Below, in pieces: positions 2,588-62,622 of a stretch of 64,000 nt of DNA (position 1 is its first letter; each line of letters starts with the position of its first letter). Source of the DNA: Callorhinchus milii (lineage: Eukaryota); the NCBI RefSeq assembly GCF_018977255.1, contig NW_024704742.1, positions 58,158,001 through 58,222,000 of the forward strand, written 5' to 3'. The translations under genes and the position numbers were made by a program. Under the pieces are notes generated by a model. The model did not search any database and was not told the DNA's origin. It saw nothing but the letters and a program-made list of their open reading frames with translations.

Positions 2588-8624
<6,037 letters not shown>

Positions 8625-19578: not shown

Positions 19579-19629
19579 ATGTGGACCTCTTACACCAACA
19601 GGATCCTGCCTGAGAAGAAGTTGAGCAAA
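19579..19629 (+). CDS. NWD-like coding exon 1 (putative start)
   Basis: cagcATGTGG...AGCAAA|gtaagg; [17 protein letters not shown], phase 0. Confidence 0.55.
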
Positions 19630-22600
19630 GTAAGGAAGACTTTCTTCTTTTTATTTATATACATATATATATATAGTGTGATTTTGTTGATATTATTCTC
19701 CTTCGTATTTCTAACGACTTGTTTTAGATCTATTTGATGCCGGTAGAATAATTGTGAAGTCTGGAGTTAGCAGCAACAAAAGCCCTTCACTTCATAGAAG
19801 TTATGTGACAAAAGTGTATAGATTGGTGCACAAACTCTCTATACACTGCATCTACATCTAGCGGGCATTTATAAACTCTGTAGAGGGAAGAGAGGTCATG
19901 AGCCAATGTGTTGCAGCAGATGATTGAGTTCTGTAATGAAGTTTGATCTTTTAACTATTGGACTTTGCTGATGGTGTTCTTTCCTCTTTGCCCCCTCCCC
20001 CCACACACCCCCTACACTCCCCATCATTTCAATATATGTACATTTCATATTAATGCCTCTGACTTGATAATGGGAAAATATTATTAAGGATTAGACCATT
20101 GCAAGTTTTCTGATCATATCAGACTAAAGCAGATCTAACATATGTATATAAATAATAATAATATATAATAATCCTTGCATTTGATATAGCGCTTTTCATG
20201 TCTTCTCGACATCACAAAGCGCTTCACAGAATATGCTGTAAAGTGAATCGATGGTATATTTGTGGGCGAAACGCGACAGCCAATTGCGCACAGCAGTGTC
20301 CCACAAACAGTCGTGGAATGAAAATGACCAATTTATTATTGTTTTGTTTTGGAGGGATTATTATTATTAGGCTCTGTGTGGAGTAAGGAAACTTGCCCAA
20401 GGTTTCGCCCTGTGCCTGGAATTGAACTCAGGTGTCTCGCTTGCAAAGCGAGTGCTCTAACCACTGAGCTACAGGATATACATTTCCACCTGCCTATTCA
20501 GGTGGAGGTTAAAGATCCTATGACACAACTTAAAAAGAGAAGGGCGTTTCCCCCTGGTGTTCTGGCCAACAATCCTCTCGATTTAAAAAAAATTGTTCAT
20601 TCACTCAGTGGCAGGTTTTAAGATATTGTTTTGGCCAAAGTATTCACCACATTTTATAGTTAATCCTGTGAACATTTCAATTACGTGATAAAGTACTAAT
20701 GTATATCAAATATAATGATTATTATCAGAATTATTACATTGTTTTGCAGGAATATGATCAATTAAAGGACGCTATAGTTCTCCCTCCAATTGGTAAAGAT
20801 CTTCTTGGAAAACCCTCTCCTCTCATAGCTCACAGAATGCAGGTAGTTTTTAAATTGTTGTATTGTGAACGTATTCACATGTATACATGGATTCTCCTCC
20901 CGCTCTCACCCGGTCACCTGCGGGGTACCCCAAGGATCATCCTTGGCCCCATCCTCTTTCTGATCTACATGCTTCCTCTTGGGGATGTCATCCGTAGAAA
21001 TGGGGTACATTTCCACATGTATGCAGATGACACCCAACTCTATTTTTCCACCTCTCTTTGCGACCTCCAGTCCCCTGATGTTCTGCAGCTCGTGTACTGT
21101 CCCGCACCAGGCTACGCGACCACATCACTCCCAACCTCGCTCACCTCCACTGGCTCCCCACCCCCCAGAGGATCGAATTCAAGATCCTCATCCTCACCTA
21201 CAAGGCCATTCACGGCCTTGCACCCTCCTACCTCTCCGACCTACTATCCCCCCATGTACCTACCCATACCTTCCGTTCATTTGGCTCCGATCTGCTCCAC
21301 ATCCCCCACCCTAACCGCCCTACCATCGGTGGCCGGGTCTTCAGCCTCTCAGCCCCCAGGCTCTGGAACTCCATTCCCCAGTGCCTTCGCCGCCTCCTCC
21401 CTTTCCTCCTTCAAGGCCGGTCTCAAGACCTTTCTCTTCAACCACGCCTTCAGCTCCCCTCTTGACTCTCTACCCCCTCCTCACTCCCGCCCTTCCCTCC
21501 CCTCCTCGCTCCCTCCCTTCTTTCCCCTCACCCTGACCATGTCCCCCCTGCTCGGGTCCCGACCCAACTGTCCAGCACCTTGGGACGTCCTCCCGACATG
21601 AAAGGCGCTCTATAAATGCAATCTTGTTGTTGTTGTTGCTGTGTCAGCCTGCCTGTCAGAACTCAGGGGCTGGATGAGCGCAAACTTCCTTCAGCTGAAT
21701 GTTGATAATACGGAAGCCGTACTCTTTGGCTCTCATCAACATCTAAAATCTCACGGCTCTCATCTCCTCCACCTACCCGACCTCCCCCTAAAACTCTCCG
21801 AACCCGTACGCAACCTAGGCATCAGGTTCGACCCCCAATTAACCTTCCTCCCCCACATCCGGTCCCTCACCAGCACCGCCTTCCACCACCTCCGACGCAT
21901 CGCCCGTCTCCGCCAATACCTCTCCCCAAAAGCCGCTGAAACCCTGGTCCATGCCTTTGTCACCTCTCGGCTGGACTATTCTAATATCCTCCTCGCCGGT
22001 CTCCCATCCACTACCATCCATAAAATCCAAATCATTCAAAACTCTGCCGTTCACATTCTCACCCCACCAAACTCTGTTCCCCGATCACCCCAGTCCTTGC
22101 CAGACTGCACTGGCTGTCTATCCCAGAGAGGATCGATTTCAAGATCCTCACCCTTGTATTCAAGTCCCTGCATTCCTCTGCATCCCCCTACCTCTCTGAC
22201 CTCTCTCCTCAAAACAGTACCCGTTGCCTCCGTTCCTTCGGGTCTGGCCTCCTTCTCGTCCCTCGAGTCCTCCGCTCCACCTTTGGCGGCCGTGCCTTCA
22301 GCCACTATGCCCCGAGGCTCTGGAACTCCCTTCCTCACTCCCTTCGCCTCGCTCCCTCCCTTCCCATTTTCAGGTCTCTGCTGAAAACCTTTCTTTTCGA
22401 CATCGCCTTTGGTCACCTTTCTCCCCCTCCCCCTGGCTCGGCCCCGGGATCCGTTACTATGAAGCACTCTGAGATGCCGTTTGGGTGGAGGGCGCTATAT
22501 AAATCCAAGTTGTTGTTGTTGTTGGTAAAATATGACAATACTTTTAAAATAGATTTAATGGCAACTGGAATGTTCCCGACATCTACATTGACATTATTTT

Positions 22601-25600
22601 CTTTCTGCTTTGAAATATTCATCTCTTCAACTTTATTTTATTTAACCTTTAAACTCAAGCCGAGGGAATGTTCATTTGTGCACATATTCTTACCCGTACC
22701 AAGTCACCCCAGTCCTGGCTCCTTTTTGCAGAACAGATCGAATTCAAAATCCTACTTACAAATCAATTCATGCTCTAGCACCACCCTACCTCTCCGACCT
22801 TCTTACATCCCACTTACCTACCCCCTTTGCTCAGTGGGCTCTGGCAATCTACACGTTTCTCGTCCACTCCGCTCCATCACCTGCAACCACGTTTTTGTTT
22901 GAATAACTTTGCCCTAAACAGTTACCATTTGGGAAAATCTTGGAACCATAACCACATTATGCTTAGAAAGCAAATTGACGCAAATAAATTTATATTCACC
23001 CTTTAGGATAGGATACTGTAACATTCTAAAGGTATTCTTGTGACTGTTGACCATTACCATGTGAACAACGGAGAAAAAGATGGACAAAACAATACAAGTT
23101 TACTTCACTGCAATGTCAGTTGAGGAACAATGCTTATGGTTGAAATAATTTTCTCTTAGTCAAAAGTAAATACCATATAAATTAATGGGTATACAGTACA
23201 AGGATAGAACTGGTTCTAGAATTTGCTTCTGGGTGGGGTGGTAGGAATGGTTGGGGGGGTAGGATGTGTGGGGGGCATTAGATAAGTGAGAGGTAGTATG
23301 CATAGAGGACTATGTGGAGAATAAACACTGGCACCGTTAGTCACTACATATAACATTATATCCCTAGACCTTAGATTGTCCAGCGCCTTAGGACATCTTC
23401 CTAATGAGAAAAGCATGCTATAAACATAAATTTGTATTGTGCTTTAGCCTGTGAAGCACTTTGAGACATTCTCCTGACGTGGAAGGCGCTGTGTCAAATG
23501 CAAGGATTATAACTGGACCCAGGTGTTCCGAGGTGAGGACAGTTCTACTTTAAATGTCCTTATTGTAATGTGAAGGAATTTTGTTTCCAATAGGAGAGGG
23601 CTTTAAAAAATCAAAATCCATCCAGTAACCTGCAGGATCTCTTCTTCTCCCCTCGGATTGTGGACTTACACAGGGTTTCTTACACAATCGTGGACCTTAA
23701 GAACAGCAGAGTGAGTTGGTGTAATATTTGAAAGATAATACTTGGAGAGAGGTATTTGGAATTTGTTTTTTCAATTATAATATTTCTAAATTGCTAGATA
23801 GCAGAGCGTCATTGGAGAGTGCCTTACAGAAAAATCAGCAGCAACACAGACGACAAAATCAAAACCCATTTGAAGGTATGGAATTCTTGTTAATGCCTGT
23901 CCCTTTCCAATACATTTAACTTATTCTAAGATCAGTGAAGTTAAGGTTAATAACAAGCAAATATCAGTAAAAGTGAAAACAGTGAAACTAAATCAGCTTT
24001 GCCTTTTTTGTTAGTTAATTAGGCAACACAGACTTACTTTAAAATGAAAGATTTTTAAAAATGTGGCCCTTTGGGAATATTGTTAACCAACTTATAATGA
24101 GGTTCTGTATTATTATTGGCATATAGTGCATCTTAGGATCAACTGAGAAAATGACTTGAGGCACTTTGTTAACTAAATTTTTAATGCTAAGAGACATAAC
24201 TGTTTATACTGTGCTTACTGACATATCTCCACTTACTAAGATGAATAGCAGCATGTCTATATCTTGTATTTACTATCAGCGTGACTTGTACCGACGGCAT
24301 TTGAAACGGATTATTCAGCATTACAGAGATGGGTCATCATCAGACGAAGGTGATGGAAGACCCTTGGGGAATAATGGACCCATGATTCAGAAGCTAGAAC
24401 AGGTTAATTTCAAAAATTGCATTACAATCAATTATATAGCCACAGTACAACCTATAGGTGTTTGTGTTATTTAAGGACAAGAGAATCTAAAATGTCATAA
24501 ATGGAAACTAGATTTATTGTGTTGATTGTGACTTCTTTTTGTCGATTTTCATATTGTGAAATTTCAAGCAAAATTTGGAAGAGGCAAATTGTGAATCCCA
24601 AACTTAAGTCCAAACAGGAAAGAGCCAGGGTTTTACACATTAGAATTTTTTTTATCTTTGCTGATTTGGGCACAGCATTTACAATCTTTTGCTTATGAAT
24701 TTTGCTGTAAATTTTCCACTCTTCCCACTCAATATCTATTAAACCTATAAGCCAAAGACAGAGAAGGTTCTCCTAGAAGGACAGACCCAGGAAGGCTTGA
24801 CACATAATGCTTTCAATGGCAAGCTATGCGGTTTTAGCTGGTTAAACTCCAGCAGTAAGTCAACACACACTCTGCAGTATCCCCAAGCCTTGGCTCTTGC
24901 CAGTCTGCACCTAATGCTCTCTCTCAGCAAAGAGTCCATATTCCATCCTAATACACAGAATTTCCATGTGTAGGTGGGATGCATAGAATTCTCAGTTTGG
25001 TTTGGATACTCTTATGCATGGTGATGGGTTTTCACATGTGTCAGACACCCGGCTGACCTAACAAAATCAGAATCCAATGAAAACCTACACCGCAAAATTG
25101 CTCTGAATTGGCAACCTTAGCAGTCATGTTACAGTTGTTTGGGAACTTTTCCAGAACTTGTAGTTGTGATTAGCACATGAAAACATTTAACATTGTTGCT
25201 CAGTTAATTTATAGTGCAGCTTAGTTATAGTGTAACTAAAGAATACTTTTTATCTTTGAGTCACACTACAATGTCTCAGAGACTAAATTCAACACAGGAA
25301 CAACTGATCCAATTTTGATTCCTGGTAATGGTACAAAATGTTAGGTTCAACCAAAGACTCAGCATTACAAATCACTGCTAAGTGTATTTATTTGGTCAGC
25401 CCGTCTGACATATGTGAAAAACCATCACCATTCTTACAAGTATCCAAACAAATTGAGAATTCCAGGCATCCCGCCTGCACATGGAAATTCCGTGTTTTGG
25501 GTTGGAATATGCATTCTCTCCCTGGAGGGCCGCATCATGCTAATCCTGAAGAGTATTGGTTGAAGGCTGGCAAGAGCCCAGGCTTGGGAACCCCAGAGTT

Positions 25601-28600
25601 TGTGTTGGGCACTGTTACAGTCTAACCAGCTAAAATCACATAGTTTGCCGTAACAGCTTTGGTTTGCGAGATTGAGGACTAGTCTACACCACAAATTCTC
25701 ATTGATCAGCCAAACTATTGACAGTGCTTCATATTGCTGGAGACCTGCCTAGCTTTGCTGGTTCTAAGATTTAAACCTAGAACCTCGTACACAAAGTGGT
25801 CAATGAAATTAACCATGTGGGATGTTAGAGATAGGAAAGGAAAAATCTTACAGAATCCACTGCCAAGTAAGAATTGGGTATAGTTACAATATTCAGCATG
25901 ATCAAATGGCTCACGAGAAATCAGAGTTTGAGTTTGCATGTGTAGAATGGTTACTTAGGGTGATGTACTAGATGTCTGTAGATACATACAATACCGGCAC
26001 AGAAGAAATTGAGGGGTTGGGGGGTGGGATGAAGGACAGAAAATAATAAGTATTAACCCATGTCTACAATTCTTTGATGCAAAACCAATGCTTCACGGCA
26101 CCAAGTCGAGGCTAACACACAGCTCCAATGCAGTGCAGGGGGAACACTGCCTGTTCAGGTGGATGTTAAAGATTCCACAGCACTATTCAAAAAGAAAATG
26201 GAGTTTATCTTGGGGTCCTACCCAACAATCCCCAAATATTATTTGTCACTCATTCCATGACTGTTTGTGGGACATTGCTGTGCACAAACTGATTGCTAAA
26301 TATGCCCACAAAATACACACAATCACACCATTTTACAGTATATTGTGCTTATGGTTACCTCCTCCCTCAGCTTGGCGTCAGCCTCTGTCACTGTGAAGCG
26401 CTCCGAGACTCTGCCCCATGTGAAGAGCGCTATATAAATGCAAGTTATTGTTCTTATTTTTACAGTAAATTCTGTGAGACACTTCGAGATTTCTGGATGA
26501 CATGTTAAGGCACTAAATCAAATGCCAGGATTATTGTTATAAGTACATTAATTTTATTATAGATTCCATTCAGATAGTATCAAGCCTCAAATTTAGTTTA
26601 CATTGTTTATATATCTTATTCAGAACATTTTTTTCTGTCTCAAAGCCTCAAATATTGAAGCTTTGAGATAGCTATTTCTCCCACAAAATATACAGTCAAT
26701 TCATTTTACAGTATATTCTGTGAAGTGCTTTGAGATGTCTCGAAGACGTGATAAGGCAATATATCAAATGCAAGGATTATTATTGTCTATTTTGAAAGAA
26801 ATTCAATGGAATAAATTATTATTTTTGATTTTGTTGCTTAAAATTAAATTGAATCATGTCTGGCCTTCTTGTTAACCTAGTCAATATCCAAATATAAACT
26901 GTATTCTCTTATTTTCTCGACAGTCAAGTGAAACTTCATTACCTCAGGATACTTCCTTTAAACCACCACTATTCCAGAGTGGTTATACAGCCAGCAGTGA
27001 AGAAAGCTCTTCATTCAGTCTGGGAAATGAATTAGTCAAAAGCAGAAAATCAGATCGCTTACTAAAACAGCAAGGAAACCAGCCAAGCGTCTGTAAAATG
27101 TTACCATTAATATCCGGTACATTCAATCAGGTTCAAAGTTTGGAATCTGATTCTTACGATGATCTCAAGAAAGAGCAAAGTTTGAGGTCATGGCACACTG
27201 AAAATTCAGAGGCTTTTGTATCATGTTCTTCTGTGACCACTCAGTCAACAAACAGTGAGGTACAGCAATCTCAGTCAAAAACCATCGGCAAATGGGGAGG
27301 TTCCACACGGTCTAAAATCCTGATGAGCAGAAGTGAGCCAAATCCTCAGATAGATATTGACTTTGAAAGTGAAATCATGAGAGGAAACATCAAAATAACC
27401 TGTCCAAGTCAGAAGAAAAGGTTTATGACGTATATCTGTAGTAGCTACATAGGTAACTATTTTTAAGCAACATATTTCTGTTCTATTCACCTATGTGGCT
27501 GTCTCAACATTAAACCAATGAAAAACCGAATGGTGAAAATGTATATGTTTCAATTGTTGGGATAGTAGCCAGAATCAAGACAGTGGATGGAAGGTAAGCG
27601 GGGAAAGCAGTGGAATGTCAGAATCAAGCCGACTCTCTTGTTACTGTCTCGGTAGACTGGGGCATAAATGTTTTGCAAGATTGTATTTACCAGGTTTATT
27701 TGCAGTGAAGAATCCAAAGAGGTAATGTCATTATTCCATCAAAATGCAAAATACAGTTGGTTTCTTTTAATTGTAATTAACCAAAAGTGAACCAAGAAAA
27801 TGTATTGTGGTGAAGGTGATTTTTGTGAGGCCAGTAAATTTACCACAGTAACATTGGAGTTTATAATGTGTAAAGAGCTCCATAAATTAAAATACTTTTA
27901 CCTTTGCAGATACAGAGCATGAAAGCAATGCATTAATGGAAAAGGTATACCCCAGACTAAATAAATATTGCAAAGAAAGAGGTTATGACTTCAAGATGGT
28001 TGATCTCAGATGGGGAGTGAAGAATGGGATTTGTGATAACCATACCACAGCTCAGCTACATCTGGACGTACTTAAGGAATGCCAAATGTCTGAAGGGTCC
28101 AACTTCATAGTAAGTGGAACAAAAATGTGTGACAACAAAAATGTTGATGCTGAAGCCCTGGAATTGTAATGATTTTAACAGATCCAATGTCATGGTTATT
28201 CAGTTGATTCCATTAAGAAACATTGGGATTTTCATCCAATATATATGTTACAAAATAGATACATCACACCACTTTATATTCTGTGAAGTACTTGAGACAT
28301 CTCTTTCCACTTAGTTCCTGTTAACCCTGCATGCCAAAGCCCTATCAATCTTGCTATATCAATCCTTGCATTTGATATAAGGCGCAATATGAAATATAAG
28401 CATTGTTATTATTACAAATGACACAGTGGTTGTGTTTGTGTTATAGCATATTTACATTGACTATTGATAGATATGAGTTGAGAACTGCTTTTGCAATGAT
28501 TACCATTCATGCTCCTTCACTGTACCACAGCATCTATTTTATTTTTATACAACATATATAATCTTCATTGTTCAGTGAAAATAAATAATCTAAAATTAAG

Positions 28601-52600: not shown

Positions 52601-55600
52601 ACAAGCTGAAGTTTGGCTCAACCACAGCAAATGCCAAATGGGGCCTGACTCTGGCAGGAGCCGCTCCGAAACAAGCCCGCTGAGGGCACACCCACCAGAT
52701 ACCCCACGAGGGCACCCAAAACTGACTGAAGTAAGTGTACAGAAGGACACTCGAGATGTAACCAAAGAGCATCACAAAAATGTATTGCACAGTAAACATG
52801 TGCACGTGGTGCACATCGGGGCACCTTCTGAAAGTGGCAAGTGCGTCTTATTAGTGCGTGTGTGGGCGCGCACATGGGGGTGGTGTACACAGGTTTTAAA
52901 GGGAGCATCCCAAAAAACGTGTGCACAACTTATGTGTGGTGAAGGAATATACCGTAAACAACGGAATGTTTTTTTGTATCGGGAAGAAGGGAAAAATTGT
53001 AACAGAAGATGTGTTTGTTTTGGATTTCTGTTTATAAATAAATATATATTTTCAAAGAAAAGTCAAAATATACCCCAATCATAGCTTATATACATATGGA
53101 TGTCAATAAATTAAGATAGAATTCCTTGTTGAAAGAGTTTGTACAATAAGTATTTACCAACTCACTGCTTCTGTTAAAAATGTTTCTATAAAATTTCTGA
53201 TTGTAATTATTGAGTTTAATTTGAGAAGCCTATTATAACACATTGAATGTTCAACAAGGAGACCAAATGTCCATTGTGACTGATAGTTACAGCCTGGTTT
53301 TCCTTAGAGGGTGAGTTGCTGATGGAAAAGGATGTCCTGACATCAACTAAATTTTCAACAGGGAATTTGCTGTGCAGTGTACACCGTGTGTCCTCCTGAA
53401 ACCTTACCGACCTATCCACTCTCTCCATTCAGCGGGTACTGGCCTGCTCTATGTCCCCCCCCACTGCCCCCCCTGCCTGCTCCACCATTGGAGGTCAGGT
53501 CTTTAGCCTTTCTGAACTCACCCTCTGGAACTCCATCCTTGGACCCCTCTACCTTGCCCCTCCCTTGCCTCTTTCAAGGCCTGCCAAAACCTTCCTTTTT
53601 GACTGCGCCATCAGTCATCTTATAATAATAATAATCCTTGCATTTGATATAGCGCTTTTCATGTCGGGAGGACGTCCCAAAGCGCTTCACAGAACACTGT
53701 AAAGTGAATTGACTGTATATTTGTGGGCGAACGCGGCAGCCATTTGCGCACAGCAATGTCCCACAAACAGTCGTAGATTGAAAATGACCAATTTATTATT
53801 GTTTTTGGTTTTGGAGGGATTATTATTAGGCATGTGGAGTAAGGAAACTTGCCCAAGCGAGTGCTCTAACCATTGAGCTACAGGACCCACTTCCTACCAC
53901 CATCCCCCTTGCCCTCCACCCCTCTTGACTCCTAGCCCACAGCTTAAGTGCAAACCCTTCACTATCCAGCACCTTGGGATGTCCTCCTGATGTGAAAGCC
54001 GCTAGATAAATGCAATTTATCTAGCAACTCGTGGCTAGTTGATCTAGGATAATGGGAGGTGAGGATTTTGTTTGCACTTTATTCGAAATTCGAAGCCCCC
54101 CTGCAGGGTTCTGTATAAAGAATACGATTAGAAACAATCACACCTAAGATTGTGCCTTTCTCTTCACCACAGCTGCGTGATCAATGGAGCCTTTATTACT
54201 AACTTCATTTTTTTTGCTAAAGAATGTTTGGGAAAAATTCTAGAAGCAAATGAAAGGGAAATGTAGGTGTTGTGTTTTTTTATTGTTTAAGATTTTTTTT
54301 GCAGCTACGTAGTGTGCAGAGGCTTGAATGCTGAAACCTTTACTGTGTGGAACATAAGAAACTCAAAGTGCGAAGGGCTTCCTGTCCGAGTAGAAAGAGG
54401 TCTGTTTGAGAGTACAGACATTGTACTGGTGAAGGATATGAAGCTGTACATCCTTTCAGACAAGGGCACAGTCACTTTCACTGGAACACATCGGCCTATC
54501 TTCCAGGTATTTAACCTAAGTATGTCTGTCCTCTTATTTCCTTTCACTGGACAATGGGGTTGAAGAGCCACTGCTGATGAAACCGGTAAAAGTTGCTGAT
54601 GGAAAAATACATCCTGACATCAACTAAATTTTCAACATGCAATCTGTGGTACACCATTTTGACTTTCGATCTGATGAGATATTGGGTAAGAACTAAAGAA
54701 GTGGGGTTAGGAATGACTTTGATGGCTCAGTTGCTAGTTCTCAGTTGTTTGCTGATGGCTCAAATTATGCATCATGTTCAAATCTCTGAGAAAACTCAAA
54801 ACTCAGTTTACATCAGGTGAAATGTGAGGTGAAATGCCAATAATAATTCCAACTTCATCAACCAGTACTTTTTCAACTAAATGTAGACACAGCAGTTGTA
54901 TGGATACTATTGCACAGTATATTTGAACTGTAAGAGTTGACATTGATATAAGAACTACAAGAAAACAATTTTAAAGTTAAGACTGAATTCAACGATTAGC
55001 CACATCCTGGATTATCCAGAACTTTTCATAGAGTAAATCTAGACCTAAGTAGAATTTCTCCCACTTGTGTCTGACTATTGAATGCAGATTAGCTGTTTAA
55101 CAATCTGGTTACTTTCTGCTTTCCAGAATGAAGTGTTCACTGTTTACCTTGTGTGTTCTTCAGACCCTGTTGGTGTATGATCTCCTTAAGAAGAAATACT
55201 TAAAGAAAATATCTTCCCTGTACATTGTGCCGAGTTTTAAACATGAATATAAGATCCTGGAAGGAGATCTGCTTCTAGGGATATCAGAAAACAGGTGGGG
55301 ATACCTTTGATGAATACATAATGAATGTAATGCAGTGCAGGCTGAGAGTCATAATGAAAACTGCCAAGATCCATTATCTATGTTGATTCTAGGTCTCCGG
55401 CTAATAAAAATGCATTTTTTTTTGGATGTAAGTGTGAAACATTAGATCTTGTACAATATTCAGGCAACAGATTAGATAATAGTAATCCTTGCATTTGACG
55501 TAGCGCCTTATCACATCTTCGAGACATATCACAGTGCTTCACAGAATATACTGTAAAGTGAATTGACTGTATATTTTGTGGGCGAAACGTAGCAGCCAAT

Positions 55601-58600
55601 TTCATACAGCAGTGTCCCATAAACAGCCATGGATTGAAGTGACAAATTTTTTTTGAAGGAATTATTATCCTCCGAAAAAGTGATCCATCAATCGACTAAC
55701 AACTGAGTTCCTACTTACTGCTTGGCAAACAGGGGCGTGTGGAGTAAGGAAATTTGCCCAATATTTCACCCTGCCGGAGATCGAACCTAGATCTCTCGCT
55801 TGCGAGGCAAATGTTCTAACTGCTGAGATGGCATGTTCCATCCGATTCGTATCTTTAGAGCACTGTTTGACATGACAGATTGTTTCCACCTACAATGTCT
55901 TACAAGGTTTCATATTTTTTCCATCTGTTTGTATCAGACAATACATTTTACATCACTCTGCAAGAAATATTTGGAATAGGTATTGCAAGTATACTATGTT
56001 TAGGCTTTTTATTAAAAGAAGGCCAGAGTTAGCAACAAAAACAGTTCTCATTGATCCTGTTCATTGTATGCTATTACTATATTTCCAATATTACACACAA
56101 ATAAACTATGCAGCTCTGTGCTGTGTATCTCACATGTCTGTTAGAGTCTAAGCTATACAACAACAACTTCCATTTTTTATAGCGCACTTCACGTGGGGTA
56201 GTGCCTCTCAGCGCTTGACAACAATACTTAAAAGGGTATTGAATAAATACTTGAAAATATATAATAAAGCGTATAGGAAAATAACGAGAGAATGGATTAA
56301 AGTAGCTAGCTACAGTGAGGGAACCAAGTTGAACATAGACCCTTTTGTTTTGTTATAGTAGAAGGAGCTTTATACTGCTTTAGGAGGTAGAAGAAATCCT
56401 TCTTCCATTCCCTAGCACTGATAGCCCTGATCTTCTTAATAAGCAATTGACTCTAATGTGTATATTTGTATAACAATGCTTGTGATTTGTTTGTCAAAAG
56501 AGATCACTTCATTATCTGGAACCTGAAGACTGGAATTATGGAGAATCGGATTCGTCCTGTGTACAAAGACGATATGTCCTTATCGAATAGTCTTCCTTCT
56601 CATGTGACTTCAATGGACAATCTGTACAAGGAACTCCTGTGCAAAAGAAAATCAAGAGATATAGAAGGATCAGGAGGTAAAGATGTTTCATGGAGATACA
56701 CAGGCTGGAAATCTGCAGTGAAGGTCGTCAGAAAATGTTGGAACTAAATAGCATGTCAAGAAAGATAGATTATTATGACTGCAAAGATGCTTAGTATTGT
56801 ATAGTGAGAATAGGCTATCCATATTGTAATAGCTATGGTATAACCTGCTACTTGATGCTGTAGACAGATATGCCATAAATGAGATTCCTAACAACCTGCT
56901 AGATATAGTGAAATATTCCCACAGATAATATTGATCATTTACGTCATGGTTGTTTGTGTGACATTGCTATGTGCAGATTGGCTGTCATATTTGCCTACAA
57001 ATAAACAGTCACTAACCACACACACTTTTTTTGTGAAATGGTTTGAGAGGTCTCAATAATGTGGTACAGAAGCTATATGAAATGAAAGGATTACACACTA
57101 ATACTAATTGTCATTATTATTAATATTATTATGTCTGTGCTCTACATTTCTACCAAGCTTTATGATACTCCCCTGCACCCCCTTTCTTCTTTCCCCTCTC
57201 CCAGCTTGGACTCCCAGTCAGCTGTGTGAAGCCCTTTGAAACATGCTCCCGACATGAAAGAAGCTACATAATGTAAATTATTGTTGTTGTATCATCCTAG
57301 GAGATAATCAGTAAAAAGAATTCCACAGTACACCAATTTTATTTAGACAGTTTCAAGATCTTATTAATTTGTACTTGGCTTTTGCTGTTGACTTTACTTT
57401 TTTTTAAACCAATCACACTTTATTCACGTCTTTGTAATATTCAGGAAAGAAAATAACTACTAAAGATGGAATTCAACAAGAATCAGTGATTAACATTCGA
57501 AAGGCTTAATAAGTGATTCATTTCCATCTTCTACTTCTATTTAGTTTGCAATGAGGTGAGGAGGAGGCTGAGAAATCCTCTGGCTTTAGCAGAAGAGTAG
57601 TGTCAGTGCCAATGCTTGCCCAGCTTGCCTGGTGTTCCCTTCCTTTTGGTGTGACATGATTATAAAAGTGGGGTGAAGAGTTACTCAGTACACCTGGGAC
57701 TGCTAATGTTGAATACCAGGGTAGCCTGAGCCCAAAACAACAGACCTGAAGGGTAGCTGTGGAGTGAGTATTGTGCTGCTCACAGGTCAGGGTAGCTTGA
57801 CTTGATTTTCCTATATATAAAAATAATAACACAATTCTGTCTGTGCATCTGTGTAATTTCAGTGTATCTCACGCCCTGGGAAAAGCGTAATGAGACAAAG
57901 ACAGCTCGGAAGAGGAGGCACGAGAAGGACGTGAGGCAAGAAATAGAAAGATTGCAGCAGTTTGCTGATGAGAAAACAAACAGTATTGATCAGTACCTGC
58001 TAAGTGGGAATGAGAAGGTGAGAAACATATTACAGTAAACTCCCAGCTTCCGTTTCACCCCAGAAATGTTATGGTATGATTTTGAAAAAAGTCCAAGTAA
58101 CATTATTTATATACACTAAAACCCTGGCTAACTGGACTACTGGACTAATGGAAGGAGGGATCCAGAGCTGGACATGATAAGGTGTTGTACCAAATGTAAA
58201 GATTATTATTAATTCTGATTTTTGTTGGTTAAATTAAGACGATATTGCACTAACCTGCACTCCAACTCATATGCCAGCAGTCCACTTTTGGAGTTTGTGG
58301 TCACATGCCACTGGACTAAAGGTAGATATTGCAAGATCAGAAATTCAGAGATTGAACAAAATCTAAATTTATATATTATAAAGGAATCATGCTTCAATAT
58401 ATCGCAGTATAATGAAAAGTATTTGACCCATTTAAGTGGTTCAGTCCTTTTTTAAACAGGGTCATGCTAAAAGTAGGTATTATATGGTGCTAAAAGGTCT
58501 AGAGTTAGCAGAGGAGGAAAGAAGAAAGCAGTATTTTACAACAACAACTTACACTTATATAGCACCCTCCATGCAGAGTAGGGTCTCAGAGCACTTAACT

Positions 58601-61600
58601 GTGAAGAATACCACATTCTGATTTCAACTGGAATCTTTCTTTCAGATAATTGTCTGTTCCTATTTTGCACATCACCTCACAGTCTTCAGCTTGGACACCA
58701 AGTCTCACACTCACACCCTCGAGGACAGGAGGTCAATGCTTTTCTTGCACAGTGCTGCACTGACACACAGTGGCAGCTACCTGGTGCTTTCAAATTACAA
58801 TGAAGTTCAGAAAGTGAGTTATGTCACTCTATGGAACCTGCACACTGGTAAGGTAATATCAATGTATATACTGTAATACAACATTCGGCAGCGTTCTACA
58901 GAGTTTTGATATTGTAAATAGAAAATATTTTTGGCTGGTGAGGCACGTAAGGGCTGAAAAATTGCTCCTCGGGTAAGCTTTAAAGTTACTGTCTATTTAC
59001 CACTTTCCTCCACTCAACCTAAAAATGCAGAACAATTGTAGACTCCCCTCACTATTCCAGCTGAGATCAACTAACTATCACAGTACAGGACAGAATCCAG
59101 GTTACCTCCCTAGTCTGTATGATTTAGTAACACACTGAATGATGGATGTTAAACTATTGATTCACTTTCCATCAATAACATGCTATTTATTTCATAAAAT
59201 AACATGCTATTTTATGATTAAGTAACTTTCTCTCTCTCTCTACTCTCTTTCCATTATATTGTGTGTGTGACTGTCTCTTTATACACAAAACGTATAAAGA
59301 GATAAATTAATCCCTTTAAAAAAGATTAATATGGTCACTCAATCCACGACTGTTTGTGGGACACTGCTGTGCGCAATTGGCTGCCGCATTTCGCCCACAA
59401 AATATACAGTCAATTAACTTTACAGTATATTCTGTGAAGCGCTTTGAGACGTCTCGAAGATGTGATAAGGCGCTATGTCAAATGCAAGGAATATTATTAT
59501 TATTAAGTAAATACCTGTGCATATAAATTGTGGTACTGTACACACATTTACCATTCATCTTTGGAAATTAAAAGCGATATTTTTATTGACATTCTGTGTT
59601 CAGGTCACCAAGAGGTTAAGAAATGAACCCGACGTGTGTTGCAGTGCGATCATGGATGGGGCTGATCGAATTGTGTACGGTGTCATGGAAGCAAACAGGT
59701 AATTGTGGCAACGTTTTGACAGTCCTATTGTTTCCATTATGCTTTGACAGTTCTATTGTTTCACTGCCCCAGAAAGATTCAGAGACATGACAAAAGACAG
59801 CAGCTTTAATTACACTGATCCCAACAGATAGGCTTTCCTCCAACCCACAGCCATGCCTCACCACAAACAGATAGGAAAGATACACTGTAGTGAAGCCTAG
59901 AGACGTTCTATAATAGAAAGAGGTTATGCCATATTGAAATGAGCTTCCTGCTCTCTTTAAAATCCCTCACGACCATTTGCAGACGTGAAAGGTGCTATAT
60001 TAAATTAAAGGATTCTTTTATCTTTTATTTTGTGTATCCTTTTTCTCTCCTGACCACCATATGTGTTCGAGCCTTCATTACATTCCTGACTGCTGGGATT
60101 CCCTGCCTCTATTTCTCCACATTGCCACCTCTCTCTATCTTTCTTTAAATCACACCTTAAAACCTATCTCTTTGACCATGCCTATGGTTGTTTCCCCCTC
60201 CTCACTTGTTTGGCGTCCAGCCCTCCCACTGTGAATTGCTCCAAGATGTCATCCTTCATAAAGAGCGCTATATTAATGCAAGTAGTTATTGTTTATTTAA
60301 CAGCCTTCTGAGGCTTGGATTGAGGCACATTGTTAGGGTAGATTAGATTTACCCTGCATCTACCTGTTCTGTATCCTAAATTTATTGGAAATTCTGAAAA
60401 CATTGTTAATAAGTTTCAAGATTTTATTTTTTTCAAAAAAAATCCTTTTTTNACTGTTCTAGAGTGCGAGTCAAAGATAAGGTACCAGAAAAGCAGCTCT
60501 AGTCAAGCGACCAGCCATCTTACACTTAGCTGAACTGTTTTAATTTTGCCCAGTTTTATCTTCATTGTTCTTTCTCTATCCTGAAAGCATCAAATTTTGC
60601 TGAGATATGGATTCTGACAGCTCTGGTGTTTTCTTAAACTAGCTATTCTCTATGGTAGACAGTATATGTCAACAGACTATTCAATGCCTACCCCTCATAG
60701 ACTCCTTCATCATCTCCAGGCTCGATTATTCCAATGGCCTGCACACAGGTCTCCACTGCTCTTCTCTACACAAGCTGCATCCCATCCAGAACTCTGCAGC
60801 CTGTGTCCCATCCCTCGTGAGGCTCCGCAAACCCATCAGCCCTTATTCTCACTCGGCTCCACTGGCTTCCCATCCCTCAGCAGATCATATTCAACATTCT
60901 CGATTTCAAATGCTTCCATGGTCTATGCGATCTCCTGCCCGGACATTCCCTCGTCCATCAATGATGGGCAAACTTGCAACCATTTTGACCTGCTCTCTGG
61001 AACACCACGCCAGAGTTCCTCCACCTTGTCACCTCCCTACCCACCTTCAAATTCTACCTTAAGGCCTATCCCATTGACTGCATTTTTAGCCACACTCCGC
61101 TTTCCTCAGCTCTTTTCTCCACACCCCTCCCTCCCAAGACTTGGGCTTCCAGTGAGTTGTGTGAAGTGCTTTGAAACAGCCTCCCAACGTGAAAGACCCT
61201 AAATAAATATAAATGCTGTTGTTGTATCATTTTAAAAAATGATCAGTAAAAATGTACAGGACACCAATTTTATTTCAACTGTTTCCAGATCTTATTTGTG
61301 CTTACCTTTTGTTGTTGACTTTAATTTTTGTTTTTAACCAATCAACTTTATTACTATTTATAAAATGAAATAAATATTAAAGATGTAATTCAACAAGAAT
61401 CAGTGATTGACATTCAAAAGGCTTATTAAGTTATAATAATATTAATAATCCTTGCATTTAATATAGCACCTATCACGTTTATGAAGATGTCTCAAGGTGA
61501 AAATTAAGCCGTAAACGGGATGAATCAAATAAGTATTCAAAAAGTTAAAAAAAACTAATTGACTTGGATTTAGTCAGTAATGACTGCCTAAATAAAATAA

Positions 61601-62622
61601 TAGAAACAAATTCATACAGTAAATTATAAATGAAATTCCAGTAGAGTATCTCTTGTTTGGGAGTGAATTGTCCTGTGGTGCCACCTATTGGTATTAGAAT
61701 AATAATAATCCTTGCGTTGGCAATAGGACCTAATGAAGTCGTTGAGAAGTCCCAAAGTGCTTCACCGAAGATATTGTAAAGTGGATTGTGTATTTTGTGG
61801 GGGAAACACAGCAGCCAATTGCACACAGCATTGTCCCATAAAAAGTTGTGGGAGTTATAAAATATTGTGGTGTGTGTTAAAATCACAGCTCTCAATTTTT
61901 TTACAGCCGTAACAATCAGGTAGTTTGTTTCCAGATTTGTGTTTGCTTGCTATCGTGGTGATCTGTTGCTTTGAGCAAATGACAGCCTTTCAGTAGATGA
62001 GTTTTGTTTGCTTTGCTTTAAGACTGAAAGTATGGGATCCATTCAGAAAAGGCCACAAGACTATTTCAGGATATGAAAAGTTTAACCTAAATATGAATAG
62101 TAGAGTGCATCTGACAGATAATGGAACAAAGGCTGTGATTCTGGCAGGTATGTGAATTTAATTTTAATATAACATTTTACACAACTGTACATAATATTGT
62201 GGGAAAATATCAGGGTGTGAAAATATTTTGCAGGGTGTGCACTTATTCACCAGAAGTGCTACAATTGGCTTGAACACTCAGGATATCGAAGAAAAAAATA
62301 AGTGAAATTGTATTTTCCTTAACATATGAAAGTATTTTAATATTTATTATTTCCTTCTCTCGTTTTCTTCTCAGACGATGTGAGTCTATGGGATCTCGAA
62401 AAAGGCACAGTCCAGTCCATTTTTACTCCCGATAGTGTGATCCGGTGCATGTCCTTGGCCTTCGAAGATAATAATATTCTTCTTGGCATGAGCGACAACC
62501 CTGCCCTCATTGTACTTAAGCTGATGTCGAAGGACACAGTGAAACTGAGTTCAAAAGAGAACTTGTTTGGAGAAGCCAGCAGTAGTGAGGATGAGGACAA
62601 TTCTAATTTTAGGTCAGGGTAA
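19579..62622 (+). CDS. NACHT and WD40 repeat domain-containing protein (NWD1/NWD2-like STAND NTPase), about 2070 aa, 31 coding exons; apparent 1-nt frameshift in exon 8
   Basis: join(19579..19629,20750..20842,23594..23710,23798..23875,24280..24402,26924..27452,27910..28109,28765..29185,29409..29563,31111..31319,33130..33269,36682..36792,37787..37945,38577..38700,38910..39110,39837..40717,41492..41631,42000..42125,42525..42856,44769..44902,48550..48678,49870..50117,51442..51610,54305..54506,55164..55294,56501..56676,57863..58017,58646..58852,59604..59698,62023..62147,62375..62622) = 6209 nt, one short of 2070 codons. Motifs: DUF4062-like [25 protein letters not shown]; Walker [14 protein letters not shown]; Walker [27 protein letters not shown]40 GHTDMITAV...[13 protein letters not shown]. 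Exons 1-5 rest only on splice sites and frame continuity. Confidence 0.88.
20151..20476 (-). mobile_element. tRNA-derived Deu-type SINE, full length
   Basis: Reverse complement of the family; ends tgctctaaccactgagctacagga. Confidence 0.93.
20750..20842 (+). CDS. NWD-like coding exon 2
   Basis: ttgcag|GAATAT...ATGCAG|gtagtt; [31 protein letters not shown]. Confidence 0.65.
20885..22523 (+). mobile_element. L2 LINE 3' portion with RT core, interrupted by a second L2 3' fragment (about 21084-21637)
   Basis: [37 protein letters not shown] ... [insert ending (ttg)n] ... [29 protein letters not shown]...[17 protein letters not shown]; frameshifted; (gtt)n tail at about 22509-22523. Confidence 0.93.
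23594..23710 (+). CDS. NWD-like coding exon 3
   Basis: caatag|GAGAGG...AGCAGA|gtgagt; [39 protein letters not shown]. Confidence 0.65.
23798..23875 (+). CDS. NWD-like coding exon 4
   Basis: tgctag|ATAGCA...TTGAAG|gtatgg; [26 protein letters not shown]. Confidence 0.6.
24280..24402 (+). CDS. NWD-like coding exon 5
   Basis: tatcag|CGTGAC...GAACAG|gttaat; [41 protein letters not shown]. Confidence 0.7.
24800..25066 (+). repeat. Unclassified interspersed repeat (hairpin+A-tail family)
   Basis: ...ttttagctggttaaactccagcag...atttccatgtgtaggtgggatgcatagaattctcagtttggtttgg...gtcagacacccggctgacc. Confidence 0.8.
25385..25670 (-). repeat. Unclassified interspersed repeat (same family, inverted relative to 24800-25066)
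   Basis: ggtcagcccgtctgacatatgtgaaaaacc...gagaattcc...acatggaaattcc...tctaaccagctaaaa. Confidence 0.8.
26110..26785 (+). mobile_element. Degraded Deu-domain SINE with nested L2 tail and a second SINE tail
   Basis: cctgttcaggtggatgttaaagattccacagcactattc...ctgtttgtgggacattgctgtgcac...; tails at about 26430, 26520 and 26760. Confidence 0.7.
26924..27452 (+). CDS. NWD-like coding exon 6 (Ser-rich linker, start of DUF4062-like domain)
   Basis: cgacag|TCAAGT...ATAG|gtaact; 529 nt open; ends ...[26 protein letters not shown]. Confidence 0.82.
27910..28109 (+). CDS. NWD-like coding exon 7 (DUF4062-like)
   Basis: ttgcag|ATACAG...TTCATA|gtaagt; [37 protein letters not shown]. Confidence 0.92.
28765..29185 (+). 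CDS. NWD-like coding exon 8 (contains apparent frameshift)
   Basis: 5' frame [25 protein letters not shown]... stops at TAA 28963-28965. The -1 frame, open from 28842, gives ...[22 protein letters not shown]; donor AG|gttagc. Confidence 0.8.
29409..29563 (+). CDS. NWD-like coding exon 9
   Basis: NAGNAG acceptor tgcag|cag|; [36 protein letters not shown]...; ACAG|gtagag. Confidence 0.85.
29665..30102 (-). mobile_element. Older SacSINE1/AmnSINE1-like Deu-domain SINE
   Basis: ttggccagggcaccaggagaaactccc...gccattggatcttta...tttaacatctcattt...tttgaacccc...ctcagaggc, which is the reverse of the Deu central domain and tRNA head. Confidence 0.75.
31111..31319 (+). CDS. NWD-like coding exon 10
   Basis: tttcag|TTCAAG...GCTCAG|gtaata; [10 protein letters not shown]...[11 protein letters not shown]...DYIDV. 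Confidence 0.88.
31386..31706 (+). mobile_element. tRNA(Ala-like)-derived Deu-type SINE, full length, young
   Basis: ggagtcctgtagctcagtggttagagcactcgctttgcaagcgagagacctgagttcaattcc...gtttgtgggacattgctgtgcgcaattggctgccgcgttcgccc...(att)n. Confidence 0.95.
32065..32200 (-). mobile_element. SINE 3' fragment
   Basis: aataatccttgcat...tttgtgggcgaaacgaggcagccaattgcgcacag. Confidence 0.85.
32580..32880 (-). repeat. Unclassified interspersed repeat (hairpin+A-tail family)
   Basis: tttttttggtcagccgagtgtctgacatatg...aaactgagaattccatgcatcccacccacacatggaaattcc...ggagtctaaccagctaaaacc. Confidence 0.82.
33130..33269 (+). CDS. NWD-like coding exon 11
   Basis: atgcag|CTACGC...AACAG|gtcagt; [20 protein letters not shown]...[12 protein letters not shown]. 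Confidence 0.88.
34152..34865 (-). mobile_element. L2 LINE 3' fragment
   Basis: Minus-strand ORFs ...[36 protein letters not shown]...LHWLP; L2 tail at the left end. Confidence 0.93.
35137..35342 (-). mobile_element. SINE 3' half, young
   Basis: (taa)n ccttgcatttgatatagcgcttttcacgtcgggaggacgtcccaaagcgc...cagccaattgcgcacagcaatgtcccacaaacag. Confidence 0.9.
35540..36287 (+). mobile_element. L2 LINE 3' fragment
   Basis: NLGVLFDP...[22 protein letters not shown]...[14 protein letters not shown]; (ttg)n tail. Confidence 0.93.
36682..36792 (+). CDS. NWD-like coding exon 12
   Basis: tttaag|GTTTAT...AGGCT|gtgagt; [36 protein letters not shown]. Confidence 0.82.
36834..37198 (-). mobile_element. 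tRNA-derived Deu-type SINE
   Basis: Reverse complement of the family tail, body and head. Confidence 0.9.
37787..37945 (+). CDS. NWD-like coding exon 13 (NACHT Walker A)
   Basis: ttaaag|GGCTTC...TCAGG|gtagga; FMGREACL...[19 protein letters not shown]. Confidence 0.93.
38577..38700 (+). CDS. NWD-like coding exon 14
   Basis: tttcag|TGACTT...TCAGAG|gtatta; [33 protein letters not shown]. Confidence 0.92.
38910..39110 (+). CDS. NWD-like coding exon 15 (NACHT Walker B)
   Basis: tactag|GACATC...TTAAAG|gtaatt; [14 protein letters not shown]...[18 protein letters not shown]. Confidence 0.93.
39837..40717 (+). CDS. NWD-like coding exon 16 (post-NACHT helical/winged-helix region)
   Basis: 881 nt open; ...[14 protein letters not shown]...IPLYL...[11 protein letters not shown]...[17 protein letters not shown]...[16 protein letters not shown]...[15 protein letters not shown]|gtaagc. 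Confidence 0.95.
40790..41131 (+). mobile_element. L2 LINE 3' fragment
   Basis: ...[16 protein letters not shown]...[14 protein letters not shown]; tail gtgaaagctgctatataaatg...(ttg)n. Confidence 0.85.
41492..41631 (+). CDS. NWD-like coding exon 17
   Basis: acacag|GAATAT...CCAG|gtaata; [28 protein letters not shown]. Confidence 0.92.
42000..42125 (+). CDS. NWD-like coding exon 18
   Basis: ctgcag|ATGATC...GGAG|gtaaga; [38 protein letters not shown]. Confidence 0.92.
42525..42856 (+). CDS. NWD-like coding exon 19 (WD40 repeats)
   Basis: atgcag|GTCACA...GTTAGA|gtaagt; GHTDMITAV...[16 protein letters not shown]...LQVWEIHSG. Confidence 0.95.
42905..43302 (-). mobile_element. Old degraded Deu-domain SINE
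   Basis: gggacctcagtttaatgtctcatccaaaaggcag...cctccattggagtgtt...gagtgctacc, similar to the copy at 29665-30102. Confidence 0.6.
43690..43872 (+). mobile_element. SINE 3' half
   Basis: ccacgactgtttgtgggacattgctg...gtgataaggcgctatatcaagtgcaaggattattatt. Confidence 0.88.
44769..44902 (+). CDS. NWD-like coding exon 20
   Basis: tggcag|GTGTTT...TACAG|gtgtgt; [14 protein letters not shown]...VKDYVLFAY. Confidence 0.85.
45205..45318 (+). repeat. Unclassified interspersed repeat (hairpin+A-tail family), 3' fragment
   Basis: ggatgcatggaac...agtttggtttgggtacttttaagcatgg...gtcagacacttgtctgaccacaaaaaaa. Confidence 0.7.
46070..46380 (+). mobile_element. CR1 LINE ORF2 fragment, degraded
   Basis: gagatctaggagt...cagtgtgagaaagcaataagcaaggctaacaggatgctg (ERDLGV...[13 protein letters not shown] motif). 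Confidence 0.7.
46396..46695 (+). mobile_element. tRNA-derived Deu-type SINE
   Basis: tcagtggttagagcgctcaccttgcaagtgagagacctgggttcaattc...caaatgcaagg. Confidence 0.9.
46715..47160 (-). mobile_element. Degraded L2 fragment
   Basis: gggagttccagagg...; gtctcagtgctgcgtccagggcagaaac (reverse of the F.P.RSTET motif). Confidence 0.65.
48550..48678 (+). CDS. NWD-like coding exon 21
   Basis: tgtcag|GAGCGC...TGCAG|gtatat; [19 protein letters not shown]...YFVVVC. Confidence 0.87.
48772..49147 (+). mobile_element. tRNA-derived Deu-type SINE
   Basis: agtcctttagctcagtgtttagagcactc...ggttcgattccc...(att)n. Confidence 0.9.
49390..49592 (+). mobile_element. SINE 3' half
   Basis: tggtcactcaa...tttcgcccacaaaatacacagtcaa...aaggattatt. 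Confidence 0.8.
49870..50117 (+). CDS. NWD-like coding exon 22 (GC donor)
   Basis: ttccag|GTACCC...GCAG|gcaagt; [15 protein letters not shown]...[23 protein letters not shown]. Confidence 0.85.
51442..51610 (+). CDS. NWD-like coding exon 23
   Basis: atttag|GTGTAT...CCCAG|gttagt; [29 protein letters not shown]. Confidence 0.87.
51972..53063 (+). mobile_element. 5'-truncated Tx1/L1-clade non-LTR retrotransposon with 18-bp TSD
   Basis: Frameshifted ORF2 C-terminus: [20 protein letters not shown] / [19 protein letters not shown] (CCHC zinc knuckle) / [11 protein letters not shown]...[18 protein letters not shown] at 53037-53042. TSD caaaatataccccaatca at 51954-51971 and 53064-53081. Confidence 0.9.
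53400..54020 (+). mobile_element. L2 3' fragment interrupted by a minus-strand SINE (53623-53887)
   Basis: L2 ...ctctggaactccatcc...aaaaccttcctttttgactgcgcc | SINE (reverse, with B-box region deleted) | L2 tail ccagcaccttgggatgtcctcctgatgtgaaag. Confidence 0.85.
54305..54506 (+). CDS. NWD-like coding exon 24
   Basis: ttgcag|CTACGT...TTCCAG|gtattt; [17 protein letters not shown]...[11 protein letters not shown]. Confidence 0.88.
55164..55294 (+). CDS. NWD-like coding exon 25
   Basis: cttcag|ACCCTG...AACAG|gtgggg; [16 protein letters not shown]...LLLGISEN. Confidence 0.87.
55477..55826 (-). mobile_element. tRNA-derived Deu-type SINE
   Basis: Reverse complement of the family. Confidence 0.9.
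56501..56676 (+). CDS. NWD-like coding exon 26
   Basis: caaaag|AGATCA...GGAG|gtaaag; [19 protein letters not shown]... Confidence 0.85.
57863..58017 (+). CDS. NWD-like coding exon 27
   Basis: tttcag|TGTATC...GAGAAG|gtgaga; [32 protein letters not shown]...YLLSGNEK. Confidence 0.87.
58646..58852 (+). CDS. NWD-like coding exon 28
   Basis: tttcag|ATAATT...GGTAAG|gtaata; [16 protein letters not shown]...[11 protein letters not shown]. Confidence 0.88.
59330..59505 (+). mobile_element. SINE 3' half
   Basis: ggtcactcaatccacgactgtttgtgggacactgctgtgcgcaattggctgccgc...aaatgcaaggaatattattatt. Confidence 0.9.
59604..59698 (+). CDS. NWD-like coding exon 29
   Basis: gttcag|GTCACC...AACAG|gtaatt; [31 protein letters not shown]. 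Confidence 0.87.
60690..61223 (+). mobile_element. L2 LINE 3' fragment
   Basis: [16 protein letters not shown]...[11 protein letters not shown]2-type tail. Confidence 0.85.
61700..61850 (-). mobile_element. SINE 3' fragment
   Basis: aataataatccttgc...cagcagccaattgcacacagcattgtccca. Confidence 0.75.
62023..62147 (+). CDS. NWD-like coding exon 30
   Basis: tttaag|ACTGAA...GCAG|gtatgt; [17 protein letters not shown]...GTKAVILA. Confidence 0.87.
62375..62622 (+). CDS. NWD-like terminal coding exon 31
   Basis: tctcag|ACGATG...; [25 protein letters not shown]...[19 protein letters not shown]. Confidence 0.9.

Follow-up and report, generated by a model that had tools for sequence, protein, structure and literature searches.

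The window, a 64,000-nt stretch of the Callorhinchus milii genome, very probably carries an intact member of an orthology group of STAND proteins, made up of a TIR-like (DUF4062/TeTIR) domain, a NACHT ATPase, and a WD40 region, which is at least as old as the protostome-deuterostome ancestor and is separate from NWD2 and probably also from NWD1. The architecture and the domain are known.

Gene structure and genomic context

The coding sequence spans positions 19579-62622 of the forward strand, with the ATG at 19579 and the TAA at 62620-62622, and is divided into 31 exons delimited by splice-site inspection; the exon model was guided by tblastn of related proteins, which gave a colinear exon chain from 19.5 to 62.6 kb.

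2618-7082 (+): RWDD4 coding exons (five seen), from tblastn with the RWDD4 parts of fused teleost models and Pfam RWD
19579-19629, 20750-20842, 23594-23710, 23798-23875, 24280-24402, 26924-27452, 27910-28109, 28765-29185 (+): exons 1-8
29409-29563, 31111-31319, 33130-33269, 36682-36792, 37787-37945, 38577-38700, 38910-39110, 39837-40717 (+): exons 9-16
41492-41631, 42000-42125, 42525-42856, 44769-44902, 48550-48678, 49870-50117, 51442-51610, 54305-54506 (+): exons 17-24
55164-55294, 56501-56676, 57863-58017, 58646-58852, 59604-59698, 62023-62147, 62375-62622 (+): exons 25-31
28872-28873 (+): one base missing from the assembly, apparent frameshift in exon 8, from contigs of 4/4 runs
50118-51441 (+): GC-AG intron 22, the sole choice compatible with phase and homology, made from these rather than from reads

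The other 29 of the 30 introns have GT-AG ends. A preliminary description of this DNA had proposed 31 phase-compatible exons encoding about 2070 aa; the number of exons and the length hold, but the phases do not, since in the assembly the exon lengths add up to 6,209 nt, which would need one more base to be divisible by three, and translation of the unmodified join meets a stop at residue 464. The contigs of 4/4 public runs (two studies; region 26850-29640) contain one additional base, in two alleles, after 28872/28873, and the protein with an X at the exon-8 break counts 2,069 aa without an internal stop. Furthermore, a 5,271-nt contig of one run, whose RNA status is a guess as the run is not listed as RNA, joins exons across introns 6, 7, and 8 at the modelled GT..AG ends; its 4,464 letters beyond exon 9, compared with 4,442 nt for the modelled exons 10-31, fit a transcript reaching the stop codon. 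The gene is real and spliced (three introns covered), and among the junctions that the preliminary description had set out for confirmation those of introns 6-8 are borne out by this contig. The exon-8 frameshift is an assembly error, because all four runs carry the base and splicing of introns 6-8 is seen in one contig; the C. milii assembly thus hides the gene behind a one-base error. That the protein is 59-62% identical, from end to end, to five proteins of sharks and rays also argues that the gene is not a chance reading.

A decaying pseudogene in C. milii is hardly credible on this evidence. The frameshift of the window assembly and the loss, in this species, of the equivalent of TEP1 R914 (see below) would speak for it; against it, the missing base is found in 4/4 runs and is carried by the 5,271-nt spliced contig, no other stop occurs in 2,069 codons, and the end branch of the window protein is not long (0.21 in the IQ-TREE phylogeny), so that decay is largely refuted. 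A pseudogene or a micro-intron in exon 8 was likewise considered and ruled out by the reads that carry the missing base.

The claimed position beside RWDD4 was confirmed, the exons of this neighbour being located upstream in the same orientation. The linkage recurs in fused gene models of two teleosts (Pfam RWD match), in a bichir model that begins with an RWDD4 exon, and in a corn-snake protein filed under RWDD4; such models are due either to prediction errors or to read-through transcription. Human RWDD4 presumably lies between ING2 and TRAPPC11, neither of which was identified in the window. A low-complexity TA/TC-rich repeat occupies window positions 1-2240, upstream of RWDD4 exon 2, and about 20 copies of a SINE-like repeat of about 300 bp, together with several LINE-like reverse-transcriptase fragments, are located in introns (the class is the author's reading; examples of repeats are 3266-3640, 20149-20476, 31383-31716, 21082-22410, 34152-36289, and 52018-52683). 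A short high-copy element is found at 28300-28345.

Domain organization and conservation

The order of domains in the encoded protein is the one that had been claimed, including the motif VDLRWG, which lies at 27999 on the forward strand.

19579-27406 (+): N-terminal extension, aa 1-315, with weak conservation among vertebrates over the first ~150 aa and low identity beyond
27407-36694 (+): TIR-like DUF4062/TeTIR domain, aa ~316-710 (profile, Pfam in the amphioxus orthologue, AF2)
37860-39944 (+): NACHT ATPase, aa ~768-940 (motifs, Pfam NACHT in the catshark orthologue, AF2)
37875-37898 (+): Walker A, GEVGCGKS at 37875
38985-39002 (+): Walker B, LDGLQEL at 38985
40092-40424 (+): NWD1-like winged helix (Pfam PF25469, 45.7 bits, cut-off 27)
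42122-62547 (+): degenerate WD40 beta-propeller region, aa ~1286-2045, group-specific and strongly conserved
57874-57972 (+): basic helix-like insert in the propeller region, aa ~1798-1830, conserved
62560-62619 (+): LFGE plus Ser/acidic C-terminal tail

The exon-6 frame of the N-terminal extension gave no Pfam match; TROVE and vWA are not among the Pfam rows listed for the orthologues, and only 315 aa precede the TIR-like domain. This latter is kin by sequence to the TIR-like domain of TEP1 and is located directly upstream of NACHT, as in the TeTIR/NIR/DUF4062 proteins. In particular, a profile of 12 relatives matches the TEP1 TIR crystal chain 11gz_A (E 2e-15), and Pfam DUF4062 is found in the amphioxus orthologue (28.8 bits, cut-off 24.7); it is not among the 25 of 29 Pfam families listed for the catshark protein. 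Within the domain, a variable insert at aa ~425-515 (28846-29117) is probably disordered. The AF2 model of a monitor-lizard fragment (48 rows, pLDDT 80.5) has a five-strand alpha/beta core, and the catalytic Glu is predicted in the helix before the fourth core strand (strand D). The top three VIA rows of this model are TIR domains (Z 9.9-10.4, rmsd 3.3-4.1, 133-141 aligned), tied with tubulin-/flavodoxin-like folds, and lower matches include MilB (Z 9.1), RCL/DNPH1 (Z 8.7), and SARM1, while Foldseek on the TIR-domain model returned nothing at E<=0.001.

DUF4062 is reported as a TIR-like NADase in three preprints (bioRxiv 10.64898/2026.05.01.722283, 10.64898/2026.09.04.749371, 10.64898/2026.09.21.753143), according to which TEP1 is active, NWD2 is weak or inactive, and NWD1 and NPHP3, as well as three prokaryotic members, are inactive. 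The earlier statement that such a protein has no known output is therefore out of date.

The NACHT ATPase looks intact: Walker A and Walker B lie in a NACHT fold followed by the winged helix, as expected of a STAND protein, and Pfam NACHT is recognized in the catshark orthologue (33.7 bits, cut-off 26.7). Among the vertebrate rows with a residue at each position, the Walker A Lys is conserved in 101/101 and the first Walker B Asp in 106/106; the second Walker B acid is Asp or Glu in 102/105 and is Gln in C. milii. The NACHT model (AF2, coelacanth fragment) has Avs3 as its best VIA row (Z 16.6), followed by resistosomes and Apaf-1 (Z 13.1); it informs on the ATPase only, because the gene model of this fragment lacks the catalytic helix.

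The long WD40 array previously described is present as a propeller region, but its repeats are degenerate, with one stretch passing Pfam WD40 in the catshark orthologue and 11 WD-like repeat ends recognized by pattern at residues 1316-1993 of the window protein. In the PDB the best 60 of 289 matches are all WD40 proteins, with no NWD structure among them, and the ESM Atlas gave generic DUF4062/NACHT clusters only. The propeller region has the highest share of invariant positions in 32 full-length members (47, or 6.2%, versus 4.8% in NACHT and 3.5% in the TIR-like domain), and its identity to amphioxus is 45% versus 37% for the ATPase part. Such conservation, which is the sole basis of the argument, would suit a fixed ligand and suggests that the propeller has a single fixed ligand or partner, probably an endogenous one. 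The His-rich motifs WNLETE.HKH (aa 1548-1557, exon 22) and.AHH (aa 1850-1855, exon 28) are nearly invariant across the group, and the propeller regions of 32 members have seven invariant His and one invariant Cys in common, a possible metal or ligand site. Both the basic insert and the LFGE/acidic tail are kept from limpet and amphioxus to lizards, and the former is eroded in Alligator sinensis; the two elements may pair with each other or serve as targeting motifs.

Orthology, age, and distribution of the group

In an unfiltered search of 1.84 billion representatives, of which the best 150 of 7,849 matches were ranked, long proteins of amphioxus, two hemichordates, a starfish, a crinoid, and a sea cucumber, together with those of a brachiopod and a limpet and two annelid long proteins, follow the vertebrates; a brittle-star protein came from the search with the anole protein. 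FastTree on the TIR-NACHT-helical core (119 rows, one row left out) unites 24 vertebrate rows with 12 invertebrate ones (branch support 100), and a quick IQ-TREE run under a mixture model, with 64 rows, SH-aLRT as the only measure of support, and a root on three rows labelled prokaryote-like by the author, places 14 vertebrate and 10 invertebrate rows on one branch (SH-aLRT 100), both trees being built without vertebrate NWD1, certainly canonical NWD2, and full TEP1. In both, the window protein is sister to sharks and rays, a position that would suit a holocephalan.

Scores of the propeller region are 353-708 bits with 10/12 invertebrate members, the other two being truncated, and do not exceed 68 bits with 102/103 other long relatives or 37 bits with 30 NWD2-named proteins; the one exception among the 103 is a protein with a short N-terminus that appears to be a further member. 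Judged by sequence, this region is the clearest marker of the group. The common branch and the propeller scores with the invertebrate members indicate that the group predates vertebrates; in fact, orthologues in amphioxus, hemichordate, echinoderm, brachiopod, mollusc, and annelid do not agree with the vertebrate paralogue initially proposed, as the gene is not a vertebrate duplicate.

The idea of a separate ancient NWD-family gene, on the other hand, is supported by the tree, the AU test, and the species that possess both genes. Thirty NWD2-named or related fish and shark proteins form a distant clade, and joining the group with it is rejected (p-AU 9.8e-5; 36 rows, LG+G4) by a test that was run after the first tree was seen and in which the NWD2-named branch is long. 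Both genes are present in 8/8 species checked, with identities to the window protein of 41-53% for the group versus 24-29% for the NWD2-named proteins. The NWD2-named clade comprises proteins of teleosts, gar, sturgeon, and sawshark, one of whose models is fused to RCC1 and HECT (a HERC neighbour); the RWG loop is lost in this clade and the catalytic column is Asp in 23/28 rows. The clade may be an NWD2 paralogue; the phylogeny thus separates the group from NWD2-named proteins that are perhaps not canonical NWD2, non-mammalian vertebrates may hold four NWD genes, and the count of "third" in the preliminary description may be wrong. Separate NWD1- and NWD2-like genes are reported in C. elegans, with a pre-vertebrate split of NWD1 and NWD2 (PMC8871372), which makes an old third branch plausible.

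The protein could also be a moved or mis-recognized orthologue of NWD1, or of canonical NWD2, as might be supposed from the RefSeq/GenBank names NWD1, NWD1-like, and NWD2 on many members and from trees built without vertebrate NWD1 or certainly canonical NWD2. This is very improbable, on evidence that is indirect as regards vertebrate NWD1: the same names sit on proteins of several different clades; human NWD1 is described with 19 exons, 12-13 WD40 repeats, and a location at 19p13.11 (PMC4039239), as opposed to 31 coding exons and a degenerate propeller; a direct NWD1 orthologue is reported in whale shark and zebrafish (PMC8455134, PMC4852459); and a lizard query matched no mammalian protein even though NWD1 is conserved in mammals.

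The gene is already predicted by annotation pipelines, unnamed or misnamed NWD1, NWD2, or RWDD4; the Astyanax member is Si:ch211-212k18.6 in UniRef, and dozens of species have "uncharacterized LOC" models of the same gene. Many NWD1/NWD2 labels of databases in non-mammals therefore belong to another gene. No description of the group as a family was found in the literature searched, which left most subscription journals outside. The three DUF4062 preprints, in the parts available, name TEP1, NWD1, NWD2, TTC41, and NPHP3 for mammals without mention of the group, whose members may be listed in their supplements, and the fish NLR surveys list, in the parts available, only NWD1 and NWD2 (PMC6988351, PMC10253273).

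An exon-16 search and an anole-protein search gave 47 (497-2,000 aa) and 104 (1,078-3,432 aa) matches, respectively. Matches at the level of orthologues occur in sharks, rays, bichir, sturgeon, gar, bowfin, teleosts, coelacanth, caecilians, salamanders, frogs, lizards, snakes, and alligator, to which lungfish and further crocodilians were added later. The range is wider than the cartilaginous fish in which the gene had been said to be kept, and a restriction to them is ruled out by the orthologues of bony fish, lungfish, coelacanth, amphibians, squamates, and crocodilians. The 47 and 104 matches of these word-filtered searches with length limits include no protein from birds, turtles, mammals, or cyclostomes, so that a loss in birds and mammals is, at most, likely; the suggested loss in mammals agrees with this result, which extends to birds and turtles. 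Each vertebrate seen appears to possess a single member, and Lingula has two. The crocodilian models are mostly split (1,153+398, 735+398, and 676+398 aa), with full-length proteins in two alligator records, because of either an annotation artefact or early decay in archosaurs.

Pocket residues, proposed activity, and comparison with known systems

The activity of TEP1 is reported to need E1008, C959, F902, R914, R942, and R976, and is abolished by F902A and C959A; F902 corresponds to DNPH1 Y24 and C959 to the DNPH1 general acid D80, and the catalytic Glu also shapes the pocket (10.64898/2026.09.21.753143). The numbering of 11gz_A was fixed from R908, R954, and R976 and then carried to the alignment via one relative; side-chain positions derive from the alignment, not from coordinates. 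The tallies refer to 119 vertebrate rows, including fragments and near-relatives, counting rows with a residue and with one row left out. In the window protein the corresponding residues are the following.

27431-27433 (+): Tyr324, place of TEP1 F902 / DNPH1 Y24 (alignment)
27924-27926 (+): Ser336, place of TEP1 R914 (alignment; no other letter in 4 covering runs)
28059-28061 (+): His381, place of TEP1 C959 / DNPH1 D80 (alignment)
31122-31124 (+): Glu594, place of the catalytic TEP1 E1008 (alignment)

The E1008 column is Glu in 100/101 vertebrate and 12/12 invertebrate rows, and in 104/104 rows of a second alignment. A loss of the catalytic Glu was considered and rejected: TEP1 E962, in the helix after the RWG loop, is absent from the group, but E1008 lies in a later motif that is kept. 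The vertebrate rows have Arg at R914 (94/96; Ser in C. milii) and at R942 (99/100, but only 2/12 invertebrate members), Lys at R976 (99/100), Tyr at F902 (91/93), and His at C959 (97/100), whereas the 12 invertebrate members have Glu in 12, Tyr in 10, and Cys in 9, and 74 other family rows have Phe (67/70) at F902, Cys (67/72) at C959, and Glu (73/73). The TEP1 SSTF loop is CGGY in the group, and W943 is replaced in 28/100 vertebrate rows, mostly of teleosts. The full TEP1-type set is therefore absent, as at F902, C959, R914, R942, and R976 the group has Tyr, His, Arg, Arg, and Lys, and C. milii Tyr, His, Ser, Arg, and Lys. Species-specific changes of C. milii are CSSYI for the CGGYK phosphate loop (27437-27451), Ser336, and the Gln at the second Walker B acid (38997-38999), and such changes at fixed positions are possibly a lineage-specific weakening.

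The tentatively preferred reading, close to an even chance and drawn by analogy, is a ligand-gated STAND protein with a retuned N-glycosidase output. The propellers would keep the NACHT ATPase shut until a conserved, probably self-made, ligand is bound, as in APAF1 and as proposed for TEP1; nucleotide exchange would then lead to a ring in which the TIR-like domains are clustered and the N-glycosidase is switched on. By alignment, the pocket combines the catalytic Glu and three basic phosphate/ribose contacts with a fixed Tyr, to which vertebrates add a His that is likewise fixed, and the output could be a base exchange to a signal nucleotide or the cleavage of a 2'-deoxy or other non-NAD nucleotide. 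A Tyr at this position reportedly marks NDT/DNPH1, with their 2'-deoxy preference, and ThsB proteins tied to His-ADPR, constrains the Glu with 2'-OH substrates, and occurs in EcThsB2, which has no NADase activity (PMC11204291). The fixed Tyr and, in vertebrates, His beside the kept Glu and basic contacts would thus favour a retuned reaction over bulk NAD+ destruction. Against a retuned enzyme stand the missing R914 equivalent and the Gln at the second Walker B acid of C. milii, the R942 present in 2/12 invertebrates, the W943 changed in 28/100 vertebrate rows, the loss of TEP1 activity in F902A and C959A, the missing NADase activity of the Tyr-bearing EcThsB2, the weak or absent activity of NWD2, NWD1, and three prokaryotic members, and the modest TIR fold match, which is tied with tubulin- and flavodoxin-like folds and has no Foldseek counterpart at E<=0.001.

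An ordinary ligand-gated NADase, as TEP1 or the bacterial Avs2-NIR, which would cause cell death or arrest by NAD+ depletion and tolerate Tyr, His, and Lys, is improbable. It would agree with the kept catalytic Glu and basic contacts and with an architecture that matches TEP1 and the NIR-bearing Avs proteins, but a Tyr at this position reportedly restricts the Glu when the substrate has a 2'-OH (PMC11204291), and the single-copy pattern and the highly conserved sensor are unlike a pathogen arms race.

A pseudo-enzyme, whose TIR-like domain binds a nucleotide or a partner and whose ring is a scaffold, as proposed for NWD1, is rather unlikely, yet better placed than this. The conservation of the Glu is no proof of catalysis, because human NWD2 keeps it and is reported as weakly active in the DUF4062 preprints, and because the residue also shapes the pocket; moreover, NWD1, NWD2, and NPHP3 are inactive or weak in the three preprints, the N-terminus of Nwd1 is reported to bind Paics (PMC7186558), and two of the six TEP1-essential residues are changed group-wide, with a third lost in C. 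milii. In contrast, the changes are fixed to one new residue (Tyr 91/93, His 97/100) rather than drifting, Glu, R914, R942, and Lys976 are jointly retained throughout the jawed vertebrates, and it is the NWD2-named clade that has Asp at the Glu column in 23/28 rows.

A bolder version of the retuned enzyme, decidedly doubtful, would be an animal NLR-like receptor lineage that already existed when protostomes and deuterostomes split, combines a conserved sensor for a fixed ligand with a Tyr/His/Glu enzyme making a signal nucleotide or cleaving deoxynucleotides, and was kept from sharks to alligators, was lost separately in birds and mammals, and would for this reason have been missed by human-centred TeTIR/NIR studies. 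Until now such a chemistry has been associated with bacterial Thoeris II and with DNPH1/NDT. Strong activity is reported only in TEP1 among the human DUF4062 members; the group is a further, single-copy-looking branch present in zebrafish-type teleosts, Xenopus, and anole, which are accessible to knockout. From the fixed Tyr/His pocket a different chemistry can be predicted in concrete terms, and the conservation of the propeller suggests that its ligand is conserved as well.

As in TEP1, the TIR-like domain directly precedes NACHT and WD40 follows, and the catalytic Glu, R914, R942, and the RWG loop are kept in the group; unlike TEP1, the group has neither TROVE nor vWA, it has a variable insert of about 90 aa and a helical insert before the catalytic helix, Tyr, His, and Lys replace F902, C959, and R976, the CGGY loop replaces SSTF, and the propeller sequence is unrelated. 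NWD1 and NWD2, as well as C. elegans QUI-1 and T05C3.2, share the domain order and the NWD1-like winged helix (PF25469), but the group differs in an N-terminus about 315 aa longer, 31 coding exons, linkage to RWDD4, and a group-specific propeller with the basic insert and the LFGE-acidic tail, and none of its members was seen in birds or mammals. In particular, it is 24-29% identical to the NWD2-named proteins of the same species, and its 31 coding exons and one passing Pfam WD40 stretch differ from the 19 exons and the 12-13 clear WD40 repeats of human NWD1. The effector-ATPase-repeat sensor plan is that of APAF1 and bacterial Avs, with the ATPase model matching Avs3 (Z 16.6) and Apaf-1 (Z 13.1), but NACHT takes the place of NB-ARC, and a TIR-like effector that of the CARD of APAF1. 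Finally, a Tyr aligned with the ribose-contact position beside the catalytic Glu is shared with DNPH1, NDT, and the ThsB of type II Thoeris, whereas, in contrast to DNPH1, His takes the place of Asp and the domain is embedded in a STAND protein of 2,000 aa.
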